A DNA stretch of 36,284 nucleotides from Patescibacteria group bacterium. GTDB lineage: Bacteria; Patescibacteriota; UBA1384; CAJBMM01. How positions within the stretch are numbered: the stretch's first letter is position 1; each line of letters starts with the position of its first letter. A program made the translations under genes and the position numbers. Of the stretch, positions 2,839 through 35,348 are shown one piece after another. The notes beneath the pieces were generated by a model. That model saw nothing but the letters and a program-made list of their open reading frames with translations. It searched no databases and was not told the DNA's origin. The stretch is from assembly GCA_041660565.1 (NCBI GenBank), contig JBAZWC010000001.1, forward strand, positions 136,197 to 172,480, written 5' to 3'.

Positions 2839-2847
2839 AGGATAATA

Positions 2848-3346: not shown

Positions 3347-3352
3347 TTGTAG

Positions 3353-20888: not shown

Positions 20889-20956
20889 AAATTTGAAATT
20901 TGAAATTAACGATGAGTGGGAGCTTCGAAAAAGCGTTATCACCACGAAAGGAAAAC

Positions 20957-21838
20957 ATGGCCAAAACCACTAAGAAAACGGCTGCAATTATTGCAGAGCA
21001 AATCTCGGACGAACGACCAGTTGTAGTTGAAGAAACTACTGACGAATCTCTAAATGACGTTTTACAAGAATCCGGTGCCGGTGCAACGGACGCTGAAGTT
21101 GACGTAGAATCTCCAATTGGCGAAGACAAAGCGGTAGAGCAAAGTGCCAAAGATTTGGCCGAAAACGAAGTTGAAGAAGTTGAAGCGGTAGAAGAACCGG
21201 TTAAAAAACAACATTCAGCTAAGGTTGCGACACCACGAAAAGCGCCACTGCATTTCAAAAAATATCGTGAAGCTGTCAAAGACCTAGATCTAACCCAAAG
21301 TTATTCGGTTGAAGGCGCACTAGAGGTTGTCAAAAAAACCTCGATTACCAAGTTTGACGCCACCGTAGAAGCACACATTAAACTATCGGTGACTAACCAG
21401 CGTGGTGTTATTCATTTACCCTCCGGCAGCGGTAAAGAGAAAAAAGTAATGGTAGTTACGGCAGATAATATCGATGCCTTTATTACTCAAGTTGAAGCAG
21501 GGAAAATCGATTTTGATATTGTAGTAGCTATTCCTTCAGTAATGCCAAAATTAGCCAAAACTGCCAAAATATTGGGACCTAAAGGGTTAATGCCTAATCC
21601 GAAATCCGGCACGGTTACCGAAGATGTTGAAAAAGCCAAAGCCGAGTTTGCTTCTGGCCGCGTTGAGTACAAACAAGACAAAGGTGGTGTGGTGCATTTG
21701 GGCATTGGTAAAGTTTCAATGACGCCCGAACAGCTAAAAGGCAACTACTTGGCGCTTGTTTCGGCATTGCCTCAGCCAAAAATTCAATCGATTTATCTAT
21801 CTTCAACCATGGGCCCCGCGGTAAAAGTGTCGCTGTAA
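20957..21838 (+). CDS. rplA: 50S ribosomal protein L1 with a ~95-aa acidic N-terminal extension
   Basis: ATG at 20957 (MAKTTKK); the ORF-track TTG at 20900 is probably an extension. The L1 core starts around HFKKYREAV and includes ILGPKGLMPNPKSGTVT. Confidence 0.9.
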   Translation: MAKTTKKTAAIIAEQISDERPVVVEETTDESLNDVLQESGAGATDAEVDVESPIGEDKAVEQSAKDLAENEVEEVEAVEEPVKKQHSAKVATPRKAPLHFKKYREAVKDLDLTQSYSVEGALEVVKKTSITKFDATVEAHIKLSVTNQRGVIHLPSGSGKEKKVMVVTADNIDAFITQVEAGKIDFDIVVAIPSVMPKLAKTAKILGPKGLMPNPKSGTVTEDVEKAKAEFASGRVEYKQDKGGVVHLGIGKVSMTPEQLKGNYLALVSALPQPKIQSIYLSSTMGPAVKVSL

Positions 21839-21842
21839 TCAT

Positions 21843-21871
21843 CTGTCATTCCCGCGAAGGCGGGAATCCAG
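21843..21871 (+). repeat. TGTCAT-headed palindromic unit
   Basis: ctgtcattcccgcgaaggcgggaatccag, with stem attcccgc / gcgggaat, 5 nt after the rplA stop. Confidence 0.7.
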
Positions 21872-21896
21872 TCTATGAAAAACTAACTCCTATTTC

Positions 21897-22009
21897 GTAG
21901 CCCAGACTTCTTGACCTGCCGTAGCTCGAAGAGCGAAGGAGGTTAGTCTGCTCATTGGTACGCTACCTCCTACGCTAAAGCTTCGGAAGGTCAGGGAAGC
22001 GTGGGCTAC
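21897..22009. repeat. long imperfect hairpin (~45-nt arms)
   Basis: gtagcccagacttcttgacctgccgtagctcgaagagcgaaggaggt is roughly complementary to acctcctacgctaaagcttcggaaggtcagggaagcgtgggctac. Confidence 0.6.
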
Positions 22010-22073
22010 GGACGTTCTTTAATACGAGAATCACAACCGATGTTAGGTGTGTCCACAAAGGAGGGACACAGAA

Positions 22074-22703
22074 ATGGCCTCGCAAACAGCAAGCCCATCA
22101 TGCTACGTGAATCCGCATGAATGGGAAGAGCGCGAAGTGACGGAATGTACCCGCCTATTCAGGTTAACCAACATTCCGGAGTGGGATGGGCTACGAGACC
22201 GCATAAGCAGGTGTCCGGTTTGGGGGACTACTTGCATTGCAGTCCCGCTGTGCATGACACGTCCACAGCTGCTTGAAATGCTGATGATGCTGGGTGTCAA
22301 GATCGCGGGAAATGACCCAGTGGCGGCAGATTGCGAGGGGGAGGATTACCCCCTTCGAGTCGGCACATTCGGGGTCGATCTGCCATGGTTTTTTGCCCGC
22401 CGCGAGTTGGGCGAGCACCCATTTGGTTTTCCACTTGACAGTATGGGTGCCCTTTACCGGTCTATGGGTGCTTACGGTATCGCGCCGGTCGAGTTGGCGC
22501 TCTGGGCAATCGCGCGACACGTCGCTTCTGGCGGTGCATTGCCAACACTACCAACATGGATCGCCGGCCTCAATGTTGTGGGAGGCGGATCGATATTGGC
22601 GCTTGACATGGCCAACGGTCCGTTGAGGATTACCGCCGTTGCACACAACATCCAAGCGTCGAACATTGCCGGCCTGCCATGGTATTTCGCGCCGGCACGG
22701 TGA
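22074..22703 (+). CDS. hypothetical protein, no signal peptide (GC-rich cassette 2)
   Basis: ATG at 22074 with AAGGAGGG at 22058-22065. 209 aa and GC-rich (37/60 G+C hand-counted at 22441-22500). No motif recognised. Several overlapping ORFs in other frames are expected for GC-rich DNA. Confidence 0.55.
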   Translation: MASQTASPSCYVNPHEWEEREVTECTRLFRLTNIPEWDGLRDRISRCPVWGTTCIAVPLCMTRPQLLEMLMMLGVKIAGNDPVAADCEGEDYPLRVGTFGVDLPWFFARRELGEHPFGFPLDSMGALYRSMGAYGIAPVELALWAIARHVASGGALPTLPTWIAGLNVVGGGSILALDMANGPLRITAVAHNIQASNIAGLPWYFAPAR

Positions 22704-22780
22704 GCCAACATCGCGATTCGCACTGGGCGCTTGGGTCAACACGACCCCGGCGCCCGTTTATTTCTCCTCACCTCTCCGAG

Positions 22781-22912
22781 CCGTAGGTCTACGAGCCGGT
22801 GGCCGGCCTACGGCCACCCTCTCCTCTTGGAGGAGAGGGGACAATAGGAATTCCTTCTCCTCTGGAGGAGAAGGTGGAACGCTAAGCGTCCCGTAACCCC
22901 GCTTAGCGGGGT
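22781..22912. repeat. cluster of five short GC-rich palindromic units
   Basis: The units are: ccgtagg...cctacgg (22781-22813); ccctctcctc-ttg-gaggagaggg (22817-22839); ccttctcctc-tg-gaggagaagg (22853-22874); ggaacgctaagcgtccc (22876-22892); ccccgcttagcgggg (22896-22910). The last two are an inverted copy of 1455-1492. Confidence 0.75.
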
Positions 22913-22947
22913 GCCTGTAAGGCGGATGAGGAGGGAATCAAAAATCA

Positions 22948-22976
22948 TTGACAATTACAATCAAATAAGATAAGAT
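22948..22976 (+). promoter_or_regulatory. sigma-70-like promoter candidate for rplJL
   Basis: TTGACA (22948-22953), 17-nt spacer, TAAGAT (22971-22976). Confidence 0.4.
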
Positions 22977-23115
22977 ATAAATAAGTTTCCAAAGACCATC
23001 AGGCCGCTAACGCGGGTAATCTTGTAAAAGTACTGATGCAGGAGCAAAGTCAATCAAAAGACAGCTGCTTTTACTTTGGACACAGAGCAGTTTTTTATTT
23101 GCGAACGGAGTAAAA
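22977..23115 (+). promoter_or_regulatory. possible rplJ (L10) leader with attenuator-like hairpin
   Basis: A ~140-nt untranslated leader ends in ctgct...agcag followed by ttttttattt (23065-23100), just before the rplJ Shine-Dalgarno. L10 leaders are known in other bacteria, but I cannot confirm the fold by eye. Confidence 0.3.
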
Positions 23116-23637
23116 ATGGCCAAAACCAAAGAAGCCAAAAATCAACTTAAAGACAGTTTGTCCGATAAACTTAAGCGCGCCAAAATTGCGGTGCTATTAA
23201 AATATCAGGGCTTAAAGGTCAAAGATTTAGAAGAGCTACGCAAAAGCTTGCGAAATATGGGTATCGACATGGTTGTGCCCAAAAACTCTATCGCTAAAAT
23301 TAGCTTGAAAGAGCAGGGGATAGAAGTTACTGGTGATGCCTTTAGTCAACCATTGGCGATGATCTTTTCTTATGATGACGAAGTCAAACCGGCTAAAGAA
23401 ATCACATTGTTTGCTAAATCCCACGAAATTGTGGAAATTTTAGGTGGAATTTTGGAAAACAAGATGATTGACGCCAGCGTTATCAAACAGCTATCCACTT
23501 TGCCATCACGTGAAGAGTTGCTTGCCAAAATGGTTGGCTCCATCGCTTCGCCGCTTAACGGATTGGTCAATGTTTTGTCCGGAGTGCCGCGTAGCCTGGT
23601 TAACGCCTTAAAACAAATCGAATTACAAAAAAAGTAA
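23116..23637 (+). CDS. rplJ: 50S ribosomal protein L10
   Basis: 173 aa. The position immediately upstream of rplL and the L10-like N-terminus (KEAKNQLKDSLSDKLKRAKIAVLLKYQGLKVKDLEELRKSLR). Confidence 0.93.
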   Translation: MAKTKEAKNQLKDSLSDKLKRAKIAVLLKYQGLKVKDLEELRKSLRNMGIDMVVPKNSIAKISLKEQGIEVTGDAFSQPLAMIFSYDDEVKPAKEITLFAKSHEIVEILGGILENKMIDASVIKQLSTLPSREELLAKMVGSIASPLNGLVNVLSGVPRSLVNALKQIELQKK

Positions 23638-23662
23638 AAAATAAATCCAAGAAAGGAATACA

Positions 23663-24058
23663 ATGTCAGACGAAAAATCATTTCAAGATTTAATGGACAA
23701 AATTGAAAAAATGTCCGTGCTTGAATTATCCGAGTTCGTAAAAGCGCTCGAAGAGAAATTTGGAGTTACTGCCGCCGCTCCTATGATGATGGCTGGTGGT
23801 GCTGCTCCTGCTGCCGGTGCAGCTGCTGAGCCAGAAGAAGAGAAAACCAGCTTTACGGTTGTGTTGGCTGCTTCCGGTGATCAGAAGATCAACGTGATCA
23901 AAGCGGTACGCGAAGTGCGATCAGACTTGGGCTTAAAAGAAGCCAAAGATTTGGTAGATGCTGCGCCTAAAACCGTTTTAGAGAACGCTAGCAAAGCCGA
24001 TGCCGAAGCCGCCAAAGAAAAATTGACTGCTGCCGGTGCCACTGTTGAATTAAAGTAA
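23663..24058 (+). CDS. rplL: 50S ribosomal protein L7/L12
   Basis: 131 aa. An Ala-rich hinge ([24 protein letters not shown]) and the C-terminal domain [25 protein letters not shown]...GATVELK. Confidence 0.95.
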
Positions 24059-24083
24059 TCATTTAATTTGCAAATCGAAAAGC

Positions 24084-24114
24084 AGAGAGGCAGCTGTTAA
24101 AGGCTGTCTTTTTG
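24084..24114 (+). terminator. rho-independent terminator after rplL
   Basis: agagaggcagc / gctgtcttttt stem (with G-U pairs) running into a T-run. Confidence 0.6.
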
Positions 24115-24124
24115 TGAAAAACAT

Positions 24125-25447
24125 ATGAAAAACGGACAATTCAAATTAATCGCCACATCAGGCAAAGCTCGTGCTGGGGAATTGCAGACAGCGCATGGTT
24201 TGGTGCAAACACCGTGCTTTATGCCGGTTGGTACCAAGGCTAGCGTCAAATCGCTTGACCCTACAATTCTTGAACAACTAAACGCTCAAGTAGTTTTGGC
24301 AAACACTTATCACCTGGCAATGTCTCCCGGATCAGCACTAATTTCGAAACAGGGTGGATTGCATAACTTTATGCAATGGAATCACCCAATTTTAACCGAT
24401 TCGGGCGGGTTTCAAGTGTTTTCGCTAGGTAAAGGTAAAAAGAACCGCACCGAAGAATCGCCTGATCAGGTGATTCCCGAAGCGACGATTACTGAGGATG
24501 GGGTTACTTTTAAATCGCATCGCGATGGAAGTGAACATTTATTTACCCCGGAAATTGCGATGAAAATTCAGGCAGAGCTTGGCGCTGATATTATTATGGC
24601 GTTTGATGAATGCCCGCCATATCCATCAACCCGAGCTGAATATCTTGCCGGAATGGAGCGAACCCATCGTTGGCTAACCCGCTGTATCAATGAAAAGAAA
24701 TCGCTAGAATCCTCGTCGTCATTTCGACCAAATCAGAAGACGGAGGACGGAGGACAGAATACGGATAATTTGTCATTTCGACCCGGGGAGCGCGTCAGCG
24801 CGACCGCGTTGGAGAAATCTCAAGAAAAAATCCCCTTCCGCTTTCATCAAAATAGTCCGTCCGATCAATTACTATTTGGCATTGTTCAGGGTGGGGTAGA
24901 CGAAGATCTGCGCAAGACCTCAGCCAAATTTGTGGCATCGCAAAATCTGCCCGGCGTTGCCATTGGGGGAGTGGCTAATGGGGGAGAGAGCCGAGCCGAA
25001 ATGGTGCAGCAAGTGGAATGGGCGCTGGCTGAGCTACCACAGGATAAACCAAGGTATCTAATGGGAATTGGCACGCCGCTAGATTTGCTTGATTTTATAA
25101 CACGGGGGATTGATATGTTTGACTGCGTGTTGCCAACTCGTTTAGGCCGCAATGGCGCATTCTGGATGGTTGAAAATGGCAAGGGAACCAGAGTGCAAAT
25201 TAAAAACTCCAGATTCACTAACGACTCACGCCCGCTAACCGAGGGTTGTAAGTGTGCAACTTGCACCAGATTCAGCCGCGCATACGTTCACCATTTGTTT
25301 GTAGAGAACGAGCCGCTTTCGATGCAATTGTTATCAATTCATAATATATTCATACTTATTGATCTTACGCATCAAATACGCCAAGCAATCATCCAAAACG
25401 AACTCAAAGCATTATCTACCAGTCTGAGGCGAGTCTGGAAAGACTAA
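24125..25447 (+). CDS. tgt: tRNA-guanine (queuine) transglycosylase carrying a ~60-aa in-frame insertion
   Basis: 440 aa. TDSGGFQVFS, LLFGIVQGG, DMFDCVLPTR, and the zinc site CKCATCTRFSRAYVHHL. An extra segment lies between HRWLTRCINEKK and QLLFGIVQGG. Confidence 0.9.
   Translation: MKNGQFKLIATSGKARAGELQTAHGLVQTPCFMPVGTKASVKSLDPTILEQLNAQVVLANTYHLAMSPGSALISKQGGLHNFMQWNHPILTDSGGFQVFSLGKGKKNRTEESPDQVIPEATITEDGVTFKSHRDGSEHLFTPEIAMKIQAELGADIIMAFDECPPYPSTRAEYLAGMERTHRWLTRCINEKKSLESSSSFRPNQKTEDGGQNTDNLSFRPGERVSATALEKSQEKIPFRFHQNSPSDQLLFGIVQGGVDEDLRKTSAKFVASQNLPGVAIGGVANGGESRAEMVQQVEWALAELPQDKPRYLMGIGTPLDLLDFITRGIDMFDCVLPTRLGRNGAFWMVENGKGTRVQIKNSRFTNDSRPLTEGCKCATCTRFSRAYVHHLFVENEPLSMQLLSIHNIFILIDLTHQIRQAIIQNELKALSTSLRRVWKD
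24715..24845 (+). repeat. composite TGTCAT-family repeat inserted in frame within tgt
   Basis: Two left-end copies: cgtcatttcgacc at 24717 and tgtcatttcgaccc at 24771. Then ttggagaaatct (24809-24820) and ccccttcc (24832-24839), in the same order and spacing as in the intergenic element at 1366-1436. Confidence 0.7.
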
Positions 25448-25466
25448 TCCTTAAGTTTTAAAATTT

Positions 25467-25489
25467 AAAATTGAAAATTTTTCAATTTT
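25467..25489 (+). terminator. A/T-only hairpin after tgt (weak terminator candidate)
   Basis: aaaattgaa-aattt-ttcaatttt, within an (aaatttt)n-like tract. Confidence 0.3.
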
Positions 25490-25543
25490 GTGTGTAGATT
25501 TGATCTATTTGAGTAAAAACCGTGCAAATTAACCGTAAAGTAC

Positions 25544-25572
25544 TTGACAAAACGTCTCAGGTATGCTATTAT
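25544..25572 (+). promoter_or_regulatory. sigma-70-like promoter candidate for GC-rich cassette 3
   Basis: TTGACA (25544-25549), 17-nt spacer, TATTAT (25567-25572). Confidence 0.5.
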
Positions 25573-25619
25573 TGTATGTTAAGCTCAATTATTAGTGAGT
25601 TAGCAGTACATTAAAAATT

Positions 25620-25680
25620 GTTAGTGCAACTAAAGCGATTAACAACCTTGGTTGGTTGTTAGTCTCTTAGTCGCACTAAC
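25620..25680 (+). promoter_or_regulatory. long hairpin in the 5' leader of the collagen-like gene
   Basis: Outer stem gttagtgc (25620-25627) / gcactaac (25673-25680) is perfect. Inner arm attaacaacc / ggttgttagt matches 9/10. Confidence 0.5.
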
Positions 25681-25719
25681 GCACATACTCTGAAATTCTC
25701 TGGGAGGAGAAATACGGCC

Positions 25720-26298
25720 ATGAAGTGGCTCACAATGTTGTTCGTCATGGCGGCCGTTGTAATGGCCGCAACAATTCCTGCGTTCGCGCAGGATGATGAT
25801 CGGATCGACGGGCAGCCAAAGGCAGATCAGGTGGGGCAGACGTCCCAGCTGGTCGCGCCACCGGACCAGTCCACCCAGTCGACCGAAACCCTGAAAGGGG
25901 ACAAGGGCGACACCGGCGAGAAGGGCGATCCTGGCGCAACCGGCCCGGCCGGTCAGCCAGGTCATGAGGGCAAGATGGGACCAGCTGGTCCCACTGGTCA
26001 CCCTGGACGTCAGGGTCGTACCGGCCCTCGTGGTCGTGATGGTAAGAACGGCCACGACGGTCGCAATGGCCGGGATGCGGTCGTCAACTACGACGCAATC
26101 GTGGGTCATGTGATGGAGCTTTTGGAGAAGAAGTGGGAAAATCCCAACAACCTCCCCAAGCCGTTGAAGGATGACCACACACTGCTCCAAGTCGTCGGCA
26201 CCACCGCGATTGCGGCCCTGTACTGGAACTGGATCATCGGGATCGCGATGATCATATTCGTTGTAGTCTTTGTTGTTCATATTAAGCGCGGCTGGTAG
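25720..26298 (+). CDS. collagen-like triple-helix-repeat protein with signal peptide and C-terminal TM anchor (GC-rich cassette 3)
   Basis: GGGAGGAG Shine-Dalgarno. Signal peptide MKWLTMLFVMAAVVMAATIPAFA-Q. 20 uninterrupted G-X-Y triplets. C-terminal hydrophobic WNWIIGIAMIIFVVVFVV followed by HIKRGW. Confidence 0.75.
   Translation: MKWLTMLFVMAAVVMAATIPAFAQDDDRIDGQPKADQVGQTSQLVAPPDQSTQSTETLKGDKGDTGEKGDPGATGPAGQPGHEGKMGPAGPTGHPGRQGRTGPRGRDGKNGHDGRNGRDAVVNYDAIVGHVMELLEKKWENPNNLPKPLKDDHTLLQVVGTTAIAALYWNWIIGIAMIIFVVVFVVHIKRGW
25897..26076 (+). repeat. (G-X-Y)20 collagen-like coding repeat
   Basis: GDK GDT GEK GDP GAT GPA GQP GHE GKM GPA GPT GHP GRQ GRT GPR GRD GKN GHD GRN GRD, aa 60-119. Confidence 0.9.
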
Positions 26299-26310
26299 TG
26301 GCGCTTGAGG

Positions 26311-26340
26311 CCCCCGCGGGCAGCTGCTCGCGGGGGTTTC
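26311..26340 (+). terminator. rho-independent terminator after the collagen-like gene
   Basis: cccccgcggg-cagctg-ctcgcggggg gives a 10-bp stem followed by ttt. Confidence 0.7.
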
Positions 26341-26408
26341 GCATGTCCGAAAAAAACATTGCTATCAACAATAAAGTTGTGCCATACTTATACTATAAAG
26401 GAGTAGTT

Positions 26409-26735
26409 ATGGCCAATGTCCAAGATCTAATGGAAAAAGATATCTTTGAACTATTACATATTCCAGATTTGCCGGATGATAAAAAAACTGAAATGCTAAA
26501 CATTATTAACGAAACTATTCAAGCCAGAGTAGTTGCGCGGATTGCTGAAGCAGTATCGGAAGAAGAAGCACAACAATTTTCTGCACTCGCCGAAAAAGAT
26601 GACCAAGAAGCGATGAAAAAATTCTTAACCGATCGTCAAATCAGCTTAGAGCAACTTGCACTAGAAGAAGCGTTAAATTATCGTATTGAATTAGTCGAGA
26701 CATTAGATTTAGCTACAAATTCTAAGGAAAGTTAG
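26409..26735 (+). CDS. small helical acidic hypothetical protein
   Basis: ATG at 26409 with AAAGGAG upstream. The ORF-track start at 26298 would run through the preceding terminator. 108 aa, and the stop lies 1 nt before the ATG of the giant gene. Confidence 0.6.
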   Translation: MANVQDLMEKDIFELLHIPDLPDDKKTEMLNIINETIQARVVARIAEAVSEEEAQQFSALAEKDDQEAMKKFLTDRQISLEQLALEEALNYRIELVETLDLATNSKES

Positions 26736-26736
26736 A

Positions 26737-29700
26737 ATGCCCGAAGGTTTATCTGCCGGAGAACCGGAACCACAGCCAAAAGTTGGCTTTAGAGAAAGAC
26801 TAAAGCAGAGATTTGGCCGTACAGAATCTGTAGACAAGAATTTGTCTGTAGAAGAAATACGAGAACAGCTAAACGCTCTACGCTCAGATGTAATGATATT
26901 TGATGATGACGGCAATGAAATTACTCAAGAGCATAATCCAGCCAAAGAAGCGGAACTCAAACAAGCTTTGATTCAAGCGATACTCAAAAAGTCAAAGGAA
27001 GGCGAACTTTCACCGGAAGATAATGATGATTTGGTTAAAGACCTAGTTGAAAATGGACATCAATCTGCGATGGCCGATATTAGTGTATCCACTCATGGAT
27101 TCAGAAATTTTCAAAAAATGTTAGACGTTACCGGTCAAAAATCGATTGAAGTTGATGGTGAAGAAGTAAATCGAGAAACAAAATCGTTTATATTAAGCAA
27201 GATTGATAAATTGCCAGAATATTGGCGCCGCCAGGTTAAAAATGGAATTGTTGCTGGCACAATTTCGGCGGCAGTTATTGGATTGCTCGCGGTAACTGTT
27301 GGTGCACCTGTAGGGATAGCAGCCATATCTTTTGGTGGCGCTACACTGGCCAAGGGGGCAGCAGACAAACTATTTCGTGATCGGCTAATTCATAAAGACA
27401 AAGATGGCGATGGTAGTTTGGCGTATAAAATCGCTCAAGATCGAGCAGGCAACATCACCGAAATGATGGAGCTGGGCAAAAATTATCAAGCCGAGCTAGA
27501 CCCAAATCGCAAAGCACAGATTTTACAAGAAATTCTTGAGCGGACCAAGAAGCGTGAGAGTGAAAATCTGAAACAGTACGAATCACTTTCAAGAAAGGCG
27601 GCATGGATTGAAGGTATTTCCGGAGCCGCCGGGGCAATGGTGACTGGCGCCTTAACTCATTCGATTGTAATGGGACAAGAGGTAAAGCAGCAAATTGCGC
27701 ATTGGGCTAAAGATGGAGTGCAGATTCACGATAACCAGTTGGTAACAGATCCAAATGTTGGTCACAACGTTAAAGAAACAGCAGATGGCACGTGGCGGTT
27801 TATTCTTAAGCAAGCGGATATTGATAAAGCCAAACATTTGTTTGGGGCTCACTGGCAGCAATATCTACACGGTGCAGGACAAAACGGACCTTTTGGACAG
27901 GGAATGTCTCCGGTTGCACCGTCACATTTATTGCCCGGCCAAGAAATCTTTCATAATTCAAAATTTGCTGAAGTTGTAATTAATAGGTTAGCGGCGCACG
28001 AAGTAGTTAGCCATATTTCGACTCTTGGAACAGTCGGTGCAATCGCGGTACCAGGAGCAGCCTCTGGATTGGCTAGCGAAATGTATAATAACCCAACATC
28101 ACAAAAATCACCTCTTTCGTCACAGCATGCAGAAGCATCTTCAGATACGCCAACCGAAACAGATTCTGATATCACAGAAGATATCCCTATTGACACAGAT
28201 ACTGATGGAACTTCCGGAACCGAGCCGGTTGATACTGAACCGGAGCCTGATAAAGCCGAGCTAGATCAATCGGGGCGTAAGAATGATACAATCAAAGATT
28301 CTTTAGACCCGTCAGAGACAATAGAAGATAAAAAGGTGGATCGCTCTGACCGTCAGCAGCGCATCTCCGATAAGGCTGAAAAGATATCGCGCATTTCTAT
28401 ATCAGAAGCTGGGAGTTACTGTCAAACGGTTTATCGAGAAGCATATAAATTTGCCCGGGAGTTACAAAGGGGTGAGGGTGTTTACGACGCAGATGCACTC
28501 ACCGCTATTGGTGTAATAATGGATTTGGTTAAAAATGGCGAATCGTCAACAAAAAATAGTTTTAGATTCGCTGAAAAAGTTTTTTCTCAAAATGATGATG
28601 AGTTACGTGCTATCGCGAGTCGAATTAACGACCCGACATTATCGAATGAGAGTAGACGCAATTCTTTAAGTGATTTGGTTGAACATATCATACCTCTCAT
28701 TCAAATTTCAGATAATCAGGCAGATAGTGGCACTGTTGAAGAAAAAGAATCTATTCTTAAAGAAATTAAGAATGGTAACGAAATTGAATTGCCGGTTAAG
28801 GATAAAGATGGAAAGAACCTAATACTAAATGAACAAATTGTCGATGGGCTAAAATTTAAATTATATAATCCAAGTGCAACTCTTCTAGAAAAAACAAAAG
28901 TGATTTGGGAAAAATACAAAGATAAAGACAGAGCCAAGGTCAAAATTCATTCCAGCGTACCAAGAGAAAAGGTTTATTATTATGAACTAGTAGATCCGGA
29001 CGCGGAGCCGGCGACTGTTTCATCAGAACCTGTTGGTGGGGCGGAAAAGACTGAAAAGTCGGCTGAACCAACTAAATTGCCGGAATTTAAAATTGAAAAT
29101 CTGGAAGCTTTACACGTCAATCAAGAAATTCCGTTGACCGACACCGAGCGCCTATTTATTGAAAAAGATCCAGTAGGGAATTTTATCGTTCCTGAAATTA
29201 TGATTAATGGTAGTAGGATTGCGCTAGATGATCGCAGAAAAAACCATGTTCATCACGATAATAAAATTGTTGTAATCACAAAAATACCGGGTACAAGTGC
29301 TGGTGATTTACTTTACCACGGAGAATTAGCAGATGCTCCTCAAAAAACTTCTGAACCAATCTTATCATCTAAAGGCGAACCCGTCGTTGAGCCGGAAGAA
29401 ACGCCAAAACCAGTAGAACCAACTGAACTGCCAAAATTTGAGGCAGACAAATTTGAAGGATTGCATGTTGGTCAGCAAATTACTCTTCGTGGGAAAACTG
29501 AAAATCTGGTTGCTAAAGGCGGAGAACCGCCACTTGTGCAAGTTAATGGAACTAATATCAAAATTGACAATCCGGATAAAGTGGCAGTGCAACACGGTCA
29601 TCAGATTGTGGAAGTTACCACGGTACCCGGCAACAGTCCCGAGGATATGTATTTTCACGCCAAATTAGTTGACACGCCAAGCGTTTTATCAAAACTAGAA

Positions 29701-31491
29701 CAATCTACACCTCAGCCAGAAGTTGAACGTAAAAGAATGGAAATACATCTAAGTTTGCCAGACGTGGGTGAGATTAAAAAAGGTGATGAACTTACGATAG
29801 ACAATCCAGTTGTTAGCGATAGTTTTATTCATAATGTATTGGCGCTGCCAACTCTAGTAATCAATGGCAAGAATTGTATTTTATACGATCCTAAACACCC
29901 AGAGGACATTAAACTCGCGAGAGAATATCTGGGGAAGGAAAAAATTAAGATCAAGCTTATATCACAGGATGAAAGAACGGGTACGTTCAAATATATTTTT
30001 CTTGAGCCCGATTCGTCAACTAAAGAAAAAGTAGCGAAAAATGTCGATGATACAGCCGGAACAAACCCTGCTAATGCTGTAGAGGCGCCAGCTGGACAAA
30101 ATTTAACTCGTCATGCAGAAGGTCCAATAAAAATCGAAAGAGAGTCCAACTATACCGGACGGCAAAAAGTGGCGTTTGATCGGGTTATGGCGGTCGAAAA
30201 TATGAGCCCAGAACAAGCCAAGGATTATTATCTTAAAGTGTATCGTCAGGCGGTTAATTTTGAATCCAGTTCAGGAGTCTCAATTCCGAACGAGGATTTG
30301 TTTGCCTTCGGATTAATTTCAGACTTGATTCGTAGCACAGATGAGCCAACCACCGTAGATTTCAATGACGCGATATCTATTCGCGAAAAAGATGCGGCCA
30401 CTATCACGGATATGTCAAAGGAGATTTTAGCCACTAATGATGATCATTACCGACAAATTGGATTGTCTGAACTTGGTCGTCACATTGTCACGTTGATTCC
30501 CAATAACGAAGAACCCCCAGCCGTACCCACGCCAGCTACAGAATCAATTACCACACCAACAGAGCCTGAAGTGGGGGCGCAAGCAGCCGCACCAATTAGC
30601 TCGGCGGCAAAAAAGAGCGCAGAATCTGCCACAGTTGAATCCGAAAGCCAGCGGCTGGAAAATGAAATTGCCAAATTACCTGATGAATTTAAGAGATTTA
30701 TCGAAGGTTTACAAAGTGTTGAGGAACATATTTATAGCAAGGACACAGAATGGCTATGTTCTTCCGATGGCCTAGCACATTTAGACAGATTTGTGTACGC
30801 GCCAGCTCCGTCGCTTGGTAGAGCTATTGGTCATGATGCGTCGGAAATATCACGCTATCTAAGTGGTATTGTACAGTCTCAAGCAGAATTACATAATCAG
30901 TTAGATGCTATCGGGATGCACCCGTTTGATGCTAAGGTGGGTGATGCGTTTAATTCAGACAATTACGATTCACCAGACGAGGAATTTGTATGGATAAGTG
31001 ATGGTCAAGAACGCCATAATCACATTGCTGGCGTATCTAGAATCGGTTACAAGCTAGGTGACAAAGTTGTACGCAAGGCAAGAGTGAAACGATGGATGTA
31101 TCATGAGCCTTCACCAGGTCAATCAGCCGAGCCAACATCTACTGCCACCGAGATTACGGCAGCAAAGACTCCTGGTAGACCAGAGGATGATATAATAATT
31201 GAAGATATTGGTGATGTGACTGAGCGCTTGCAACAATATGATGCGCGTCTAAATCAAGACGATCGATATCAAAGAATGACTGAACCAGAAAAATTGTTTT
31301 GCCGAATCTATCTTGATGCTCGCGGTTTCACCGACGACAATGTGCAATACTCTCTAGACTTAAGAAATACAGACGCAGAATCATTCGATATCGCATTAGA
31401 ATATACGACTAGTATTCTTAATCGAGAGTTTAGCGACAACTTGCGTTATGAATATTATGTAACATTACGCAATTGGCTCACTAAATTATAA
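26737..31491 (+). CDS. giant (1584 aa) membrane-anchored multi-repeat hypothetical protein
   Basis: Uninterrupted ORF with AAGGAAAG upstream. Two adjacent hydrophobic helices (27243-27350). An acidic T/D/E linker, four tandem ~80-92-aa modules, three copies of a ~100-aa helical module and a GrpE-like segment. Confidence 0.85.
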   Translation: MPEGLSAGEPEPQPKVGFRERLKQRFGRTESVDKNLSVEEIREQLNALRSDVMIFDDDGNEITQEHNPAKEAELKQALIQAILKKSKEGELSPEDNDDLVKDLVENGHQSAMADISVSTHGFRNFQKMLDVTGQKSIEVDGEEVNRETKSFILSKIDKLPEYWRRQVKNGIVAGTISAAVIGLLAVTVGAPVGIAAISFGGATLAKGAADKLFRDRLIHKDKDGDGSLAYKIAQDRAGNITEMMELGKNYQAELDPNRKAQILQEILERTKKRESENLKQYESLSRKAAWIEGISGAAGAMVTGALTHSIVMGQEVKQQIAHWAKDGVQIHDNQLVTDPNVGHNVKETADGTWRFILKQADIDKAKHLFGAHWQQYLHGAGQNGPFGQGMSPVAPSHLLPGQEIFHNSKFAEVVINRLAAHEVVSHISTLGTVGAIAVPGAASGLASEMYNNPTSQKSPLSSQHAEASSDTPTETDSDITEDIPIDTDTDGTSGTEPVDTEPEPDKAELDQSGRKNDTIKDSLDPSETIEDKKVDRSDRQQRISDKAEKISRISISEAGSYCQTVYREAYKFARELQRGEGVYDADALTAIGVIMDLVKNGESSTKNSFRFAEKVFSQNDDELRAIASRINDPTLSNESRRNSLSDLVEHIIPLIQISDNQADSGTVEEKESILKEIKNGNEIELPVKDKDGKNLILNEQIVDGLKFKLYNPSATLLEKTKVIWEKYKDKDRAKVKIHSSVPREKVYYYELVDPDAEPATVSSEPVGGAEKTEKSAEPTKLPEFKIENLEALHVNQEIPLTDTERLFIEKDPVGNFIVPEIMINGSRIALDDRRKNHVHHDNKIVVITKIPGTSAGDLLYHGELADAPQKTSEPILSSKGEPVVEPEETPKPVEPTELPKFEADKFEGLHVGQQITLRGKTENLVAKGGEPPLVQVNGTNIKIDNPDKVAVQHGHQIVEVTTVPGNSPEDMYFHAKLVDTPSVLSKLEQSTPQPEVERKRMEIHLSLPDVGEIKKGDELTIDNPVVSDSFIHNVLALPTLVINGKNCILYDPKHPEDIKLAREYLGKEKIKIKLISQDERTGTFKYIFLEPDSSTKEKVAKNVDDTAGTNPANAVEAPAGQNLTRHAEGPIKIERESNYTGRQKVAFDRVMAVENMSPEQAKDYYLKVYRQAVNFESSSGVSIPNEDLFAFGLISDLIRSTDEPTTVDFNDAISIREKDAATITDMSKEILATNDDHYRQIGLSELGRHIVTLIPNNEEPPAVPTPATESITTPTEPEVGAQAAAPISSAAKKSAESATVESESQRLENEIAKLPDEFKRFIEGLQSVEEHIYSKDTEWLCSSDGLAHLDRFVYAPAPSLGRAIGHDASEISRYLSGIVQSQAELHNQLDAIGMHPFDAKVGDAFNSDNYDSPDEEFVWISDGQERHNHIAGVSRIGYKLGDKVVRKARVKRWMYHEPSPGQSAEPTSTATEITAAKTPGRPEDDIIIEDIGDVTERLQQYDARLNQDDRYQRMTEPEKLFCRIYLDARGFTDDNVQYSLDLRNTDAESFDIALEYTTSILNREFSDNLRYEYYVTLRNWLTKL
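28762..30012 (+). repeat. four tandem protein-level repeat modules inside the giant ORF
   Basis: R1 28762-29001, R2 29065-29340, R3 29416-29679, R4 29737-30012. R2 and R3 align clearly: EPTKLPEFKIENLEALHVNQEIPL versus EPTELPKFEADKFEGLHVGQQITL, and INGSRIALDD versus VNGTNIKIDN. All end in an aromatic-rich strand plus (L/E)(V/A/P)D.P or LEPD. Confidence 0.7.
30772..31095 (+). other. GrpE-like segment within the giant ORF
   Basis: LAHLDRFVYAP...LHNQLDAIGMHPFDAKVGDAFNSDNYDS...IAGVSRIGYKLGDKVVRKARVKRW resembles the GrpE C-terminal pattern (G(V/M)..I...G..F(D/N)P..H.A...........(V/I).....GY.L.(D/G)(R/K)V(L/I/V)R.A.V.V). Eye-level similarity only. Confidence 0.4.
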
Positions 31492-31535
31492 GTAATTTAT
31501 TCAGTTTATTCTGTCCAATTTAATTGCACATAATG

Positions 31536-31673
31536 TGAATCCGGAAATTATTTTCCCTGTCATCCTGAACTTGATTCAGGATCTACATAATAAGAACCAA
31601 GGACTGGATTCTTAGATCTTGTCCGGAATGACACAACCCTGAGTAAATCATCAAACTGGAATTTCCGGATTCA
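31536..31673. repeat. nested palindromic element: 14-nt perfect inverted repeat enclosing two TGTCAT-family units
   Basis: tgaatccggaaatt (31536-31549) / aatttccggattca (31660-31673). Inside are ctgtcatcctgaacttgattcaggatc (plus orientation) and gatcttgtccggaatgacaca (minus orientation). Confidence 0.75.
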
Positions 31674-31736
31674 TAGTACATATTTTTGCATTAGCCAGAT
31701 AATCTGGTTATCATTATAAGTGTATATCTATTATAT

Positions 31737-31767
31737 GGATTCCGGGTCGAGCCCGGAATGACAGGGG
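31737..31767 (-). repeat. TGTCAT-headed palindromic unit (reverse orientation)
   Basis: ggattccgggtcgagcccggaatgacagggg, with stem ttccggg / cccggaa, ending 5 nt before the ATG at 31772. Confidence 0.7.
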
Positions 31768-31771
31768 AATT

Positions 31772-31948
31772 ATGGAAATTGCTCAATTGCGCCAAGGTTT
31801 TGAAAAGGTCAATGCCCGAATTGATCGCTTACAGAAAATGTACAGTGAAGATATAAATGTAACGCTTGAGGATGTAAATAAAGTCCGCCGGTATGCCGAA
31901 AAATTAGAGAAACGGTTGGCAAAACTGGAGCTAATGCAAAATGGATAA
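31772..31948 (+). CDS. small coiled-coil hypothetical protein (58 aa, below ORF-track cutoff)
   Basis: ATG 31772 to TAA 31946-31948: MEIAQLRQGFEKVNARIDRLQKMYSEDINVTLEDVNKVRRYAEKLEKRLAKLELMQNG. It overlaps the next ATG (31941) by 8 nt. Confidence 0.45.
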   Translation: MEIAQLRQGFEKVNARIDRLQKMYSEDINVTLEDVNKVRRYAEKLEKRLAKLELMQNG

Positions 31949-32342
31949 GCCAAGAACTCTAGAAGAACCGTCACAGCCGGATGAAATAGTATCATCCGAA
32001 GTGGTTAGTAATCACGTTGCCGAAAAACCGGCTGTCGAGAAAATTACTGACGGTATTTTAGCCGAACCCGGGCAAAAACCGCCAAAAGATGAAATGGCAT
32101 CAGACGGTCCTTCTGAAATTGTGTCTGCAGAAGTGCAACCACCAACACCCAAGGCCCCCCTCGAGACTGTAACTCCCAATACATCCAATCTTCCCAATGA
32201 CCCCTATATGCTAGCAGAAGAAAAAGCAGTTCAACATGAAACATTTAAGCAAATGGAGCACGCTATTCGGGATCGTAAGACCGGGGAAGCATACGAGCTT
32301 GACCAAGCAGTAATCGCAATGCGTCAAGAAGCGGAAAAATAA
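31941..32342 (+). CDS. Pro/Glu-rich, probably disordered hypothetical protein
   Basis: 133 aa. The stop overlaps the ATG of the ATPase gene (TAATG). Confidence 0.5.
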   Translation: MDKPRTLEEPSQPDEIVSSEVVSNHVAEKPAVEKITDGILAEPGQKPPKDEMASDGPSEIVSAEVQPPTPKAPLETVTPNTSNLPNDPYMLAEEKAVQHETFKQMEHAIRDRKTGEAYELDQAVIAMRQEAEK

Positions 32343-34855
32343 TGGACACACGCTATTTTCCAAACGAACCTGTAACAACAACTCAAAGCGCGTGGCCGCT
32401 ATTTTTAGGGTTGTTGCTGCTTGCTTTGGTAATTGCACTGGTCACAATATTGGTGTGGTGGCTAAAACATAAATCAGAGCAGTCTCGTCTGAAACGATCG
32501 CTTGAACTAACGATGTTGCAGGTCAGTTTACCTAGAGACACTAATCCATCCGAAGAAGATGTGCGTCAAGATTTTCGCGAGCTAATTGCTATTGGTGAGC
32601 CGTTGATCGCCAGCTTTCAACACTTATATGATCATTCTCGCAAGTTTGGTAGCGTGCCCCAAGAGCACATTACCTTTGAAATTGCCGCCCACGATCGCGA
32701 AATATTCTTTTATGTTGGCGTTTCTAAACATCTGGTTAGCTTGATTGAAAAACAAATTCACGCTCAATATCCGGATGCGATGATAGAAGAAATTCAAGAT
32801 TACACCATTTTACGCGATAAAAACGCCAAAATTGCCGCCGATCAGCTAAAATTGGCAAAAAGCTTTATCTTGCCCATTCGCACCTATCGAGACCTCGAAT
32901 CCAGCTCACTTAACGTCATCACCAATACCTTGTCAAAACTGGGTGATGATTCCACAGCGGCAATTCAATTTTTAATTCGCCCGAATGATGGCTATTGGCG
33001 CACGCAGGTGATGTTTTGGGCCAAGCAGCTGCAACTTGGTAAAGGATTTAACCCGTATGCCGATACATCGATGCGCCAGTTTTGGAATATTCTAAGCCCG
33101 AATTTGAAAAAATCGGTTATGACCGAAGACGCCAAAGCAGAAGCGGAGCGCCGTCAGTTAACTCCAATGCAAGAAGAGCAACTGAAATTACTAAACAATA
33201 AATCCGGTAAGGTGGGATTTGACGTTCAAATTCGAATTATTGCTACCGCGCCAACTGCACCGGAAGCCAAAACGGTGCTTGAAAACATCTCTTCGTCATT
33301 TGCCCAGTTTACCGATCCTACCGGTAACTCAATTCAGCCAGCGCATTATCCTAATGTAGCTCGGTTGGTGTTGGATTATATTTTGCGCACCTTTACGCCG
33401 GGACGAGTGATGATTTTGAACACCGAAGAAATTACCTCGTTGTTTCATTTTCCAAATCGTCATATTGAAACTCCAAACATCCGCTGGCTTAAAGCCAAAA
33501 AAACCACCCCGCCGCCAAACCTTCCAACCTCGGGTAGGTTGCTGGGCGTATCGCATTTTCGCGGTGAAGATAAACAAGTGTTCATTAAACCAGCGGACCG
33601 CATGCGCCATTTGTACGCGGTGGGTAAGACTGGTGTGGGAAAATCAACCTTGCTGCAAAATATGATTGTAGATGATATCAAAGAAGGTTTGGGAGTGGCG
33701 TATTTGGATCCGCATGGTGACTCAATCGAATACATTATGCGACACATTCCCGAGAATCGAATTAAAGATGTGATTATCTTTGATCCATCCGACACTGCCC
33801 GTCCACTCGGATTAAACTTGTTAGAGTGGAGTACTCCGCAGCAACGAGATTTTTTGGTCCAAGAAGCGGTGCAGATATTTTATAAATTATTTGATCCAAA
33901 CCAAACCGGTATTGTGGGGCCGCAGTTTGAGCATTGGTTGCGTAATGCGGCGTTAACGTTGATGTCCGACCCGAATGGGGGAACGCTGATCGAAATTCCA
34001 CGTTTGTTTGTGGACAAACAGTTTGAAACCCAAGCGTTGCAACACGTTACCGACCCGGTGGTACGCGCGTTTTGGGAACAGCAGATGTCCAAAACCTCCG
34101 ATTTTCATAAATCCGAAATGCTTAACTACTTTACCTCTAAATTTGGTCGTTTTATGACCAACACCATGATTCGCAACATCATCGGTCAGCCCAAAAGCGC
34201 GTTTGATTTTAGGAAGGTGATGGATGAAGGCAAAATTTTGCTGGTTAATTTGTCTAAAGGTAAAGTGGGCGAGGTTAACAGTAATTTGCTCGGTATGATC
34301 TTAGTGTCTAAATTGCAGGTAGCGGCGATGAGTCGGGCTGACGTACCGGAAGATCAGCGCCCGCCGTTTTATCTTTATGTTGATGAATTTCAAAACTTTA
34401 CTACCGACGCCTTTGCGTCCATATTATCCGAGGCACGCAAGTACGGCTTGGCTCTAAGTTTGGCCAACCAATACATCGAGCAGCTAACCGAGCAAATTCG
34501 CAATGCGGTAGTGGGCAATGCCGGTACAATTGTGGCGTTTCGAGTGGGTGCCGCTGATGCCGAGTTTCTGGTCCACGAGTTTCAGCCGCTGGTTGAGGAC
34601 GATCTAATCAATATCGACAAATATAACTTTTACTTAAAACTGTTAATTGATAATCGCGCCGAGCGACCGTTTAATTGCGAAGTTTTGCCACCAGATACCA
34701 CCGGCACGGCTGCGATGGCAGATGCGGTTCGCCACGCATCACGCACCACTTACGGTCAAGACGAAAAAGTAGTTGAAGCTCAAATAATTGAACGATCTAA
34801 AGTAGATCAGATCTCACTAGGTGGCATGGAACAGCCGGTTCCATCTGCCAGGTAA
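32342..34855 (+). CDS. membrane-anchored VirD4/TraD-like (type IV coupling protein-like) P-loop ATPase
   Basis: 837 aa. N-terminal TM helix (WPLFLGLLLLALVIALVTILVWWL), a ~380-aa unknown domain, Walker A GKTGVGKST followed by AYLDPHGD, and Walker B FYLYVDEFQNF. SEARKYGLALSLANQY...GNAGTIVAFRVG is typical of TraD/TraG C-terminal modules. Confidence 0.8.
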   Translation: MDTRYFPNEPVTTTQSAWPLFLGLLLLALVIALVTILVWWLKHKSEQSRLKRSLELTMLQVSLPRDTNPSEEDVRQDFRELIAIGEPLIASFQHLYDHSRKFGSVPQEHITFEIAAHDREIFFYVGVSKHLVSLIEKQIHAQYPDAMIEEIQDYTILRDKNAKIAADQLKLAKSFILPIRTYRDLESSSLNVITNTLSKLGDDSTAAIQFLIRPNDGYWRTQVMFWAKQLQLGKGFNPYADTSMRQFWNILSPNLKKSVMTEDAKAEAERRQLTPMQEEQLKLLNNKSGKVGFDVQIRIIATAPTAPEAKTVLENISSSFAQFTDPTGNSIQPAHYPNVARLVLDYILRTFTPGRVMILNTEEITSLFHFPNRHIETPNIRWLKAKKTTPPPNLPTSGRLLGVSHFRGEDKQVFIKPADRMRHLYAVGKTGVGKSTLLQNMIVDDIKEGLGVAYLDPHGDSIEYIMRHIPENRIKDVIIFDPSDTARPLGLNLLEWSTPQQRDFLVQEAVQIFYKLFDPNQTGIVGPQFEHWLRNAALTLMSDPNGGTLIEIPRLFVDKQFETQALQHVTDPVVRAFWEQQMSKTSDFHKSEMLNYFTSKFGRFMTNTMIRNIIGQPKSAFDFRKVMDEGKILLVNLSKGKVGEVNSNLLGMILVSKLQVAAMSRADVPEDQRPPFYLYVDEFQNFTTDAFASILSEARKYGLALSLANQYIEQLTEQIRNAVVGNAGTIVAFRVGAADAEFLVHEFQPLVEDDLINIDKYNFYLKLLIDNRAERPFNCEVLPPDTTGTAAMADAVRHASRTTYGQDEKVVEAQIIERSKVDQISLGGMEQPVPSAR

Positions 34856-34878
34856 ATTACATATTGTTCACAGGGTGA

Positions 34879-34907
34879 TTGACTCCGGTGCTGTTTTTGA
34901 GTATAAT
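34879..34907 (+). promoter_or_regulatory. sigma-70-like promoter candidate for GC-rich cassette 4
   Basis: TTGACT (34879-34884), 17-nt spacer, TATAAT (34902-34907). Confidence 0.5.
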
Positions 34908-34943
34908 TATGTCAACAACTTATCCATTCACGGGGGTGCTGTG

Positions 34944-35348
34944 ATGCACGATAAGGTTGGCAGAAACCTTGACACTTTCGGGCAGTTCATTGCCCGCGAC
35001 CTGTTTATCCTTGCGGTAGGACTATTTGCTGGGTATGGTTGCACGTTACAACGATTCGACTGGCAGGTTTACGGCATAGCTTTGCTCTTCGAGACGGTCT
35101 GCAGTGTGCTCTACGTTGTCGCAATGGACAGTCACATGGTGATCGTTGGCGCAGAGGATATGGCCAAGGGTTTGGTTCCATGGGGTGGGCCATATGAGCG
35201 TATGTCGCACGAAGTTCCACCGAAACTGTGCAAGCCTCTGTCGTTTGTGCATTGGGTGGGCATTGTTACGTTTGGATGTTGGTTAGTCCAAATGCTGTAC
35301 TGGCTTATCCCGGCGTTCCTACACTGGGCTGTGACTGTACAAGCGTAG
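34944..35348 (+). CDS. small 3-TM membrane hypothetical protein (GC-elevated cassette 4)
   Basis: ATG at 34944 is downstream of the promoter. The ORF-track start at 34821 overlaps the ATPase gene and runs through the promoter. 134 aa with three hydrophobic segments. 31/60 G+C hand-counted at 35041-35100. Confidence 0.55.
   Translation: MHDKVGRNLDTFGQFIARDLFILAVGLFAGYGCTLQRFDWQVYGIALLFETVCSVLYVVAMDSHMVIVGAEDMAKGLVPWGGPYERMSHEVPPKLCKPLSFVHWVGIVTFGCWLVQMLYWLIPAFLHWAVTVQA

Follow-up and report, generated by a model that had tools for sequence, protein, structure and literature searches.

Introduction

The collagen-like proteins known from bacteria form surface rods that are bound to the envelope at one end and are rich in charged residues, and polar or charged side chains are used in them in place of hydroxyproline (PMC8968730). 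In the Scl proteins, the rod of glycine-X-Y (G-X-Y) triplets projects from the cell surface, and in the Bcl proteins variation in triplet number sets the length of the filament (PMC8968730). Here we analyze a gene for a collagen-like protein of 192 amino acids (aa) in a 36,284-nt stretch of DNA (the window; GC content about 43 to 45% overall) from contig JBAZWC010000001.1 of a Patescibacteria group bacterium. The protein carries 20 G-X-Y triplets, compared to about 50 in an Scl1 example (PMC8968730), between a signal peptide and a C-terminal membrane helix, and its gene follows tgt.

How ultra-small epibiotic bacteria recognize and hold their hosts is largely unexplained. For bacteria of the candidate phyla radiation (CPR), work on host attachment has so far pointed to type IV pili and type IV secretion, and the host-interaction papers that we found do not mention collagen-like proteins in their titles and abstracts. 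A paper on type IV secretion in Patescibacteria mentions neither collagen nor DUF5663, the domain family encoded directly downstream of our gene. Our literature search returned no paper tying collagen-like proteins to the CPR/Patescibacteria group.

Results

A genuine gene on the plus strand

The collagen-like gene is a genuine and probably monocistronic gene on the plus strand. The original prediction, made from the sequence of this stretch, described a self-contained expression unit, and the promoter, the leader, the Shine-Dalgarno sequence GGGAGGAG and the open reading frame (ORF) were all found where it had placed them (Table 1). The promoter (TTGACA-17-TATTAT) matches the consensus at 11 of 12 positions, has an extended -10 TG at 25564-25565 and is the top-scoring site within 21800-27000, an interval in which the total of promoter-like sites is not above that of shuffled sequence. 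The G+C content at the first, second and third codon positions (GC1/2/3 = 0.65/0.45/0.68) follows a coding-type profile. Moreover, an independent Logan assembly of SRR18595301 (contig L001) is identical to the window across 11,534 bases that include the gene, and therefore the locus is not an assembly chimera.

A strong terminator had also been predicted. The hairpin itself was confirmed as a stable structure 3' of the gene (16 bp, -34.6 kcal/mol, z = -3.9 compared to shuffled sequences), but its stem is followed by TTT only. Because of this short T-run, it is not listed by our terminator scan, which asks for a GC-rich stem and a U-run of at least 5. The hairpin may still act as a terminator.

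It is most improbable that the plus strand is noncoding here, with the minus-strand ORF 25639-26280 as the real gene or with GC-rich DNA that shows a G-X-Y periodicity by accident. A 213-aa antisense ORF does exist, and GC-rich DNA carries long chance ORFs. However, it is the sense frame that has the coding-type profile and that encodes a signal peptide, 20 perfect triplets, a membrane helix and a Pfam domain above the cut-off. The sense architecture is conserved in seven genomes, whereas none of the relatives has an antisense open stretch as long as its sense gene. The antisense ORF, which is not conserved, is a shadow ORF of the kind that GC-rich coding DNA carries. Nor is the DNA a simple repeat. 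The G-X-Y region contains weak 9-bp repeats alone, in 2 to 4 copies, and its codons are varied, which means that the periodicity is upheld by the protein sequence and is not a by-product of a DNA repeat.

Protein architecture

The proposed layout of signal peptide, (G-X-Y)20 and C-terminal membrane helix was recovered, and it would put a short collagen rod outside the membrane. A Pfam scan, suggested as a check on the collagen assignment, matched Collagen (PF01391) at aa 60-117 with 38.4 bits (cut-off, 27.2) and found no other domain in the 192-aa protein. The run consists of exactly 20 triplets without interruption, with glycine at every third residue throughout, and it is the only run of at least 5 triplets in the six frames of the whole window. 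Among its 40 X and Y residues, 18 are charged and 7 are proline. It opens with acidic residues and lysine, including the pair-forming GDKGDTGEKGDP, and closes rich in arginine and histidine.

The N-terminal segment reads MKWLTMLFVMAAVVMAATIPAFA up to the putative cleavage point before QD and is signal-peptide-like. Hydropathy peaks at the two ends of the protein, with maxima of 2.68 at the N terminus and 3.16 at the C terminus. An AlphaFold2 monomer model, with a mean predicted local distance difference test (pLDDT) score of 58.6, places helices at residues 2-21, 124-140 and 153-189 and leaves the rest disordered. The C-terminal 73 aa consist of two helices in this model, which renders what had been called a short globular part as a single helix of 17 residues, with low confidence. 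On a heuristic reading of hydropathy, model helices, the AFA/QD site and the KR tail, the topology is predicted to be type I single-pass, with a cleavable signal peptide, a C-terminal transmembrane (TM) helix and a positive cytoplasmic tail. Since a cleavable signal peptide is present, the earlier term "tail-anchored" does not apply in its strict sense.

Table 1. Features of the collagen-like gene and its product, in window coordinates
Feature	Position	Strand	Basis and remarks
Sigma-70-type promoter	25544..25572	+	-35 TTGACA (25544-25549), 17-nt spacer, -10 TATTAT (25567-25572); consensus match and conservation
5'-proximal small leader hairpin	25577..25605	+	Predicted; minimum free energy (MFE) fold of 25575-25725
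Long leader hairpin	25619..25681	+	MFE fold; basal stem GTTAGTGCAAC.../...GTCGCACTAAC, apical part variable
Shine-Dalgarno GGGAGGAG	25702..25709	+	10 nt before ATG at 25720; read from sequence
Coding sequence, 192-aa collagen-like protein	25720..26298	+	ORF; stop TAG 26296-26298
Signal peptide, aa 1-24	25720..25791	+	MKW, hydrophobic core, AFA/QD; hydropathy, model helix 2-21
N-terminal tip of mature protein	25792..25896	+	35 residues, acidic/polar; predicted disordered
(G-X-Y)20 collagen-like domain, aa 60-119	25897..26076	+	Pfam Collagen and direct reading
Juxtamembrane amphipathic helix, aa 124-140	26089..26139	+	AlphaFold2 monomer, pLDDT about 64; candidate trimerization/nucleation element
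C-terminal TM helix (about aa 162-186) and basic tail HIKRGW	26203..26295	+	Hydropathy; model helix 153-189, pLDDT 77-86
GC-rich terminator-like hairpin	26306..26341	+	Fold; TTT only after stem

Positional homologues in relatives

To define relatives, we took the contigs carrying the closest tgt homologues, which are metagenomic and encode tgt proteins 51 to 60% identical to that of the window; farther tgt matches include Peregrinibacteria, Gracilibacteria and "Patescibacteria group." One more contig, L102, was the sole gain from a metagenome scan with a DUF5663 profile, in which most of the 17 loci were too short. The gene order DUF11 - release factor - M50B - ybaB - pth - L1 - L10 - L12 - tgt is conserved on the contigs of the relatives. 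Wherever the sequence of a relative reaches far enough past tgt, a GC-rich gene whose product has a signal peptide, a G-X-Y run and a membrane helix occupies the slot between tgt and the gene for either DUF5663 or a giant protein.

Positional homologues are present in seven relatives, with 6 to 20 triplets. In this slot lie the homologues of L082 (148 aa, 7 triplets), L083 (228 aa, 6 triplets), L086/L087/L088 (161 aa, 11 triplets; L086 and L087 are 99.95% identical), L090 (201 aa, 10 triplets), L091 (240 aa, 20 triplets, Pfam Collagen on record) and L085, which equals L092 (a 438-aa fusion, 7 triplets). The L102 homologue (279 aa, 7 triplets) stands beside DUF5663 on a short contig. A-x-A-type cleavage sites occur at the equivalent place in most homologues (PAHG in L083). 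The order from signal peptide to C-terminal anchor is complete in five of the seven; in L085 and L102 the membrane helix is internal or is not seen at the end. The C-terminal anchors of the relatives carry RR, SRDR or RRPQ tails.

In sequence, the L082 and L086 proteins are 33% identical over 129 aa (E = 1e-10), a similarity that extends beyond the G-X-Y run, and those of L083 and L085 are 44% identical over 48 aa, including the noncollagen motif P.FTAW. The window protein is closest to that of L091 (44% over 84 aa, E = 2e-12, mostly in the collagen part) and matches those of L083 and L090 with E values of about 1e-5; the significant pairs lie mostly in the signal peptide and the G-X-Y run. 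A multiple alignment shows the shared layout, with the relatives 21 to 27% identical to the window protein. Because conservation outside the G-X-Y run is weak, family membership rests largely on synteny and architecture. We consider it probable that these genes form a fast-evolving, lineage-restricted family that fills the slot between tgt and the genes for DUF5663, the giant protein and a VirD4-like ATPase in small-genome bacteria of the CPR/Patescibacteria type.

In L082, L083, L086 and L091, a second GC-rich gene, here termed TM2, lies directly 3' of the collagen-like gene. Its product has an N-terminal membrane helix followed by a coiled coil rich in alanine, arginine and glutamate. In L085 (10659-11975; equal to L092), the collagen-like protein is fused to the TM2 coiled coil via a single membrane helix. 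This fusion is an argument both for a genuinely membrane-spanning C-terminal helix and for cooperation between the two proteins; by such Rosetta-stone-type evidence, the collagen-like protein probably works with the adjacent TM2 in the relatives. The window has no room for TM2 at this place, since the stop codon and the DUF5663 gene are no more than 110 nt apart.

The linkage with TM2 raises the question of whether the window copy is a decaying, nonfunctional remnant of a two-gene module that has lost TM2. We regard this as an unlikely account. The presence of TM2 after the gene in four relatives, the fusion in a fifth and the short distance to the DUF5663 gene all speak for it. Against it, the ORF is intact and has the joint-longest G-X-Y run of the family, shared with L091, and the gene has kept its near-consensus promoter, a strong Shine-Dalgarno sequence and the leader stem that is conserved in two relatives. 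L090 may also be without TM2 directly downstream, on a contig that ends 190 nt past the gene, and in the window's own genome TM2 could lie elsewhere on the 516-kb contig, beyond the window.

The internal helix of L085 also bears on whether the C-terminal segment is instead a sorting signal that is cleaved, so that the rod becomes covalently linked to the wall or to lipid in the style of sortase or exosortase substrates (cf. Scl1/Scl2). With a hydrophobic stretch and, behind it, a short basic tail, the C terminus does resemble sorting signals, and every member that we read has a glycine no more than about five residues before the hydrophobic stretch (GLGN, NGN, NHG, NWG, SPG, VVG). There is also a weak NCBIfam match to EF0750_LPXTG at aa 168-190 (E = 0.11). 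Conversely, none of the sorting-signal models matched the protein significantly, and neither LPXTG, PEP nor any other recognized motif occurs in the window protein or its relatives. No sortase gene is present in the window, and the helix of L085 links the collagen part to a large cytoplasmic coiled coil. A sorting signal therefore seems rather unlikely to us, and we retain the membrane-spanning anchor.

Promoter and leader

In the six genomes whose sequence extends far enough upstream, every homologue is served by a consensus promoter of its own, followed by a leader of 100 to 400 nt. Promoters of the TTGACA-17-TGnTAnnAT type lie upstream of the homologues in L082, L083, L085, L086 and L091. 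The leader of the window gene folds with -47.9 kcal/mol (z = -5.1), and none of 200 shuffled sequences was as stable. Equivalents of the basal stem were found in L082 (GTTCGTAGAAC/GTTCTACGAAC) and L086 (GTTCGTGAGAC/GTCTCACGAAC), where paired changes keep the pairing; these are three sequences in all, too few for statistical covariation. In all three, the 3' arm of the stem ends 39 to 48 nt before the start codon. The hairpin loops differ, and repeats resembling miniature inverted-repeat transposable elements (MITEs) are inserted in the loops of L082 and L086. Part of the Shine-Dalgarno GGGAGGAG pairs with UUCUCU in the predicted fold, forming a 6-bp mini-hairpin. Rfam 15 gave no match at the gathering score in the leader or anywhere else in the window. 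Our guess is that the predicted structure may serve in translation control or mRNA stability.

In L082, a perfect 20-nt direct repeat (TTTCTAGCGTTCTACGAACA) that equals the 3' arm of the leader stem is present at 2047-2066 and 3428-3447. It brackets 1.4 kb comprising a GC-rich gene for a vWA-like lipoprotein, MITE-like repeats and the promoter of the collagen-like gene, which suggests a local duplication or an insertion within the leader. A lipoprotein gene related to this vWA-like one comes after tgt in L091.

GC-rich composition

The gene stands out from its surroundings by its composition. The GC content over 25700-26340 is 60.5%, compared to 36 to 38% in the 500-nt flanks, and the GC content at third codon positions (GC3) is 0.68, compared to 0.27 to 0.48 in the native genes of the window. 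When the same protein was recoded with native codon frequencies, GC3 was 0.434 +/- 0.033, with a maximum of 0.557 in 5,000 trials. Lysine is encoded by AAG in 92% of cases in the gene and in 22% in native genes. This GC-rich codon usage is common to two other islands of the window, 12562-14513 and 22047-22703. The DUF11 proteins, which have signal-peptide-like N termini, are of native composition, and therefore the anomaly is not general to secreted proteins.

From the AT-rich end of the anchor-coding part, the original prediction had drawn a mosaic or fusion origin. The underlying counts hold: G+C is 41 of 60 at 25921-25980 and 10 of 36 in the last 36 nt of the TM-coding part. The interpretation does not. 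In blocks of 12 codons, GC3 stays at 0.83 to 0.92 across aa 145-180, a stretch that takes in the TM helix up to two thirds of its length, and it is within the collagen part (aa 85-108) that it falls lowest, to 0.25-0.33, below the 0.42 of the last block. The AT-rich look of the tail is due mainly to the codons for isoleucine, phenylalanine, valine and lysine. Furthermore, the C-terminal anchor is not peculiar to the window protein, as it is also present in five of the seven positional homologues.

Outside the family, the full protein found matches in the G-X-Y part only among 5.8 billion proteins, and its C-terminal 74 aa found only itself among 1.84 billion representative proteins. In PHROG, phage DNA, PDB and NCBIfam, protein and gene had no match beyond the G-X-Y segment (aa 52-130 in the PDB). 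The phage DNA matches, which include tail-fiber genes of Gordonia and Xanthomonas phages, are 45 to 68 nt long, and a search of plasmid DNA with the gene returned no match. There are no phage genes near the gene in the window. We rejected a phage or plasmid fragment because the matches are confined to the G-X-Y part and no plasmid matches, and an integron or mobile cassette because the window has no integrase, tRNA gene or repeated junction motif.

One could nevertheless suppose that the gene is a recently acquired foreign cassette, in which a G-X-Y fragment from a GC-rich phage tail fiber or host was fused to a native AT-rich anchor. This supposition would account for the GC content and GC3 of the gene relative to its flanks and to recoded sequences, the codon usage that it has in common with the other two islands, the matches of the G-X-Y part to PHROG tail-fiber families and phage tail-fiber DNA and the AT-rich last 36 nt of the anchor. 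We nonetheless think it improbable. The same architecture, slot and promoter type and, in two genomes, the leader stem recur in relatives at the tgt identity given above, which also speaks against the term "cassette" in the sense of an inserted unit. The phage matches are short or confined to the G-X-Y part, plasmids give none and the C-terminal 74 aa have no homologue among the representative proteins. As described, the codon usage stays GC-rich through most of the anchor and dips inside the collagen part, and most homologues have the anchor.

In each case, the island genes of the relatives have a GC3 about 0.1 to 0.4 above that of the native genes of their own genome. The identities between the window and L083 are 63% for L10, 75% for L12 and 53% for L1. 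At a tgt identity of 51 to 60%, synonymous sites are expected to be at equilibrium, yet all copies stay GC-rich. A recent transfer is at odds with the conservation of slot, promoter type and leader stem, and no donor was found. Long residence fits equally poorly, as GC-rich codon usage is kept in every copy despite deep divergence. A tentative explanation, which we hold to be possible but doubtful, is that the gene is part of a lineage-specific class of secreted-protein genes whose GC-rich codon usage has long been kept in AT-rich reduced genomes. If this is true, a gene-specific force is needed for a GC3 excess of +0.1 to +0.4 and for a share of AAG among lysine codons of 90%, compared to 22% in native genes, that persist over a divergence at which synonymous sites are saturated. 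Candidates are codon choice as a means of controlling translation or mRNA stability in conjunction with the conserved leader structure, a very strong local biased gene conversion and repeated reseeding from a GC-rich reservoir, e.g., the host. GC-rich usage in syntenic genes contradicts the usual view of compositional islands as recent horizontal transfers, and island-based transfer calls in this CPR/Patescibacteria-like group could be biased.

The first of the other two islands (12562-14513) is a gene pair with a GC content of 0.60 to 0.62 and a GC3 of 0.71 to 0.74; both products have signal peptides, and the second ends rich in proline. In L109, the second gene has a 39%-identical, GC-rich (0.60) homologue, which likewise precedes the DUF11 genes, and therefore this island is also positionally conserved. 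The L109 homologue carries a short G-X-Y/PPG run (GRDGRDGKDGKPGPPGPPG...). If the GC-rich class exists, at least this second gene of the pair would belong to it, too. The second island (22047-22703) lies between the L1 and L10 genes with palindromic repeats on both sides. At this interval no gene is called in the relatives, except a 68- to 71-aa ORF in two. The 218-aa ORF of the island has no homologue among 5.8 billion proteins and no Pfam or PHROG match, its GC1/2/3 is flat (0.61/0.52/0.59) and it may not be protein coding. Scans of viral contigs with the proteins of both islands gave no match.

Neighboring genes and repeats

The window carries ftsW, nusG, L11, mfd, dprA, topA, recR, dus, genes for DUF11/CLIPPER surface proteins and a release factor, pth, L1, L10, L7/L12 and tgt, followed after the collagen-like gene by DUF5663, a 1,584-aa protein and a VirD4-like ATPase. 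By this gene content, the organism would be placed with CPR/Patescibacteria-like bacteria. The last three belong to a conserved cluster (26409-35348) that encodes DUF5663 (108 aa), the 1,584-aa protein, in which the sole recognizable part is GrpE-like (aa 1290-1451), several small ORFs and a VirD4/TrwB-like ATPase of 837 aa. In L082, L085, L086 and L091, this set of DUF5663, giant and VirD4-like genes recurs in variable order and orientation. The L1 protein (20900-21838) reaches 312 aa via an acidic N-terminal extension of about 100 residues, and those of the relatives have 309 to 340 aa.

Palindromic, MITE-like repeats (TGTCATTTCGACC...GGTCGAAATGACA), read as SFRP or VISTE in translation, are found in the window at 1366-1498, 21846-21870, 22780-22915 and 24710-24868, and many copies are present in L082 at 1850-3400. 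Those at 24710-24868 are two copies lying in frame in a surface loop of tgt (aa 196-248); the tgt proteins of relatives have insertions of other lengths in the same loop, e.g., "VISTESALWRSSGEI" in L083. In this they recall the palindromic elements of Rickettsia. One copy, at window position 22863, is the exact point at which the Logan contig L001 breaks off.

Discussion

Proposed function of the protein

Based on its predicted architecture, we favor, with reasonable but by no means full confidence, the view that the protein forms a membrane-anchored trimeric surface stalk of about 17 nm for cell contact or envelope spacing. According to this model, the precursor would take the Sec route and lose its signal peptide by cleavage behind AFA (aa 24), the C-terminal helix would stay in the membrane and the basic tail HIKRGW would remain inside the cell. 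Three chains would be kept in register by their membrane helices and by the juxtamembrane helix, which would nucleate the trimer. The 20 triplets could then zip into a triple helix of about 17 nm (60 residues x 0.29 nm), whose stability, because hydroxyproline is absent, would come from proline and from pairs among lysine, aspartate, glutamate and arginine. The flexible, acidic tip of 35 residues would be carried by the rod at a distance from the membrane. It might act as a surface fibril that contacts another (host) cell, which would fit the epibiotic lifestyle of cultivated relatives, or as a rod that sets the spacing of the membrane and the outer envelope layers.

Several points weigh against this proposal. 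The contact or spacing function is inferred from architecture and lifestyle alone, and the support consists of sequence and one monomer model in which the G-X-Y run is disordered. Without hydroxyproline, 20 triplets are short for a stable helix, and some relatives have 6 or 7. The usual partner TM2 is absent from the window, and the window copy could be functionally reduced. Conservation outside the G-X-Y run, at the level of identity to the window protein seen in the alignment, appears weak, and the hairpin 3' of the gene has no proper U-tract.

The gene always adjoins the cluster for DUF5663, the giant protein and the VirD4-like ATPase, which permits a link to that apparatus. A variable-length collagen rod encoded beside a VirD4-like cluster, at a conserved position and with a fast-diverging sequence, is a testable candidate for a contact or spacing fiber.

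Comparison with known systems

Among the described proteins, the streptococcal Scl1/SclA and Scl2/SclB (NF038330 and NF038329) are alike in their signal peptide, charged and hydroxyproline-free G-X-Y rod and C-terminal hydrophobic stretch with basic tail, and in them, too, triplet number varies between relatives. Other Scl proteins carry more triplets than about 50. They differ in having an N-terminal globular V domain for trimerization, in place of which the window protein has its 35-residue disordered tip. LPXTG is found neither in the window protein, where the nearest sequence is NLPKPL at aa 144-149, nor in the relatives. The NCBIfam models for Scl1 and Scl2, where the cut-offs are 325 and 400 bits, reach 43.2 and 37.0 bits, in the G-X-Y part only. 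Legionella Lcl (NF046116), a collagen-like adhesin that a Gram-negative bacterium secretes, gives the highest NCBIfam score, 43.4 bits, and is matched by all six aligned family members. However, its cut-off is 500 bits, the alignment extends over aa 34-118 only, nothing here corresponds to the C-terminal domain of Lcl and the anchoring is different. Judged by these scores, the window protein is not a member of the Scl1/Scl2 or Lcl families.

BclA/BclB of the Bacillus exosporium and Clostridioides BclA1-3 also have short collagen-like regions with strain-variable triplet numbers that set filament length, but they are attached through N-terminal targeting and end in a C-terminal globular, C1q/TNF-like trimerization domain. 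We rejected a BclA-like identity because the window protein has no C-terminal globular domain, only helices 124-140 and 153-189. The range of 6 to 20 triplets among the relatives recalls, by analogy, the length polymorphism of other bacterial collagen-like surface proteins. Phage tail fibers (PHROG 10972, 5073, 366 and 1806), which gave the best PHROG and phage DNA matches, resemble the protein in their short G-X-Y rods and trimeric fibers; unlike it, they lack both a signal peptide and a membrane anchor, and they end in receptor-binding domains at the C terminus.

A single membrane helix, a helical or coiled-coil trimer nucleator next to it and a collagen ectodomain are combined in the vertebrate membrane collagens (XIII, XVII, XXIII and XXV), and class A scavenger receptors (SR-A, MARCO) share the membrane helix, the nucleating element and the collagen ectodomain. 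The membrane collagens are listed in PMC8968730. Both groups differ in being eukaryotic type II proteins with an N-terminal anchor, hydroxylated and far longer, and their similarity to the window protein is limited to the G-X-Y part. This likeness is one of analogy, not homology. Together, these comparisons suggest, at the level of sequence, that the protein adds a new, minimal and membrane-anchored variant to the collagen-like surface proteins already known as a class in bacteria.

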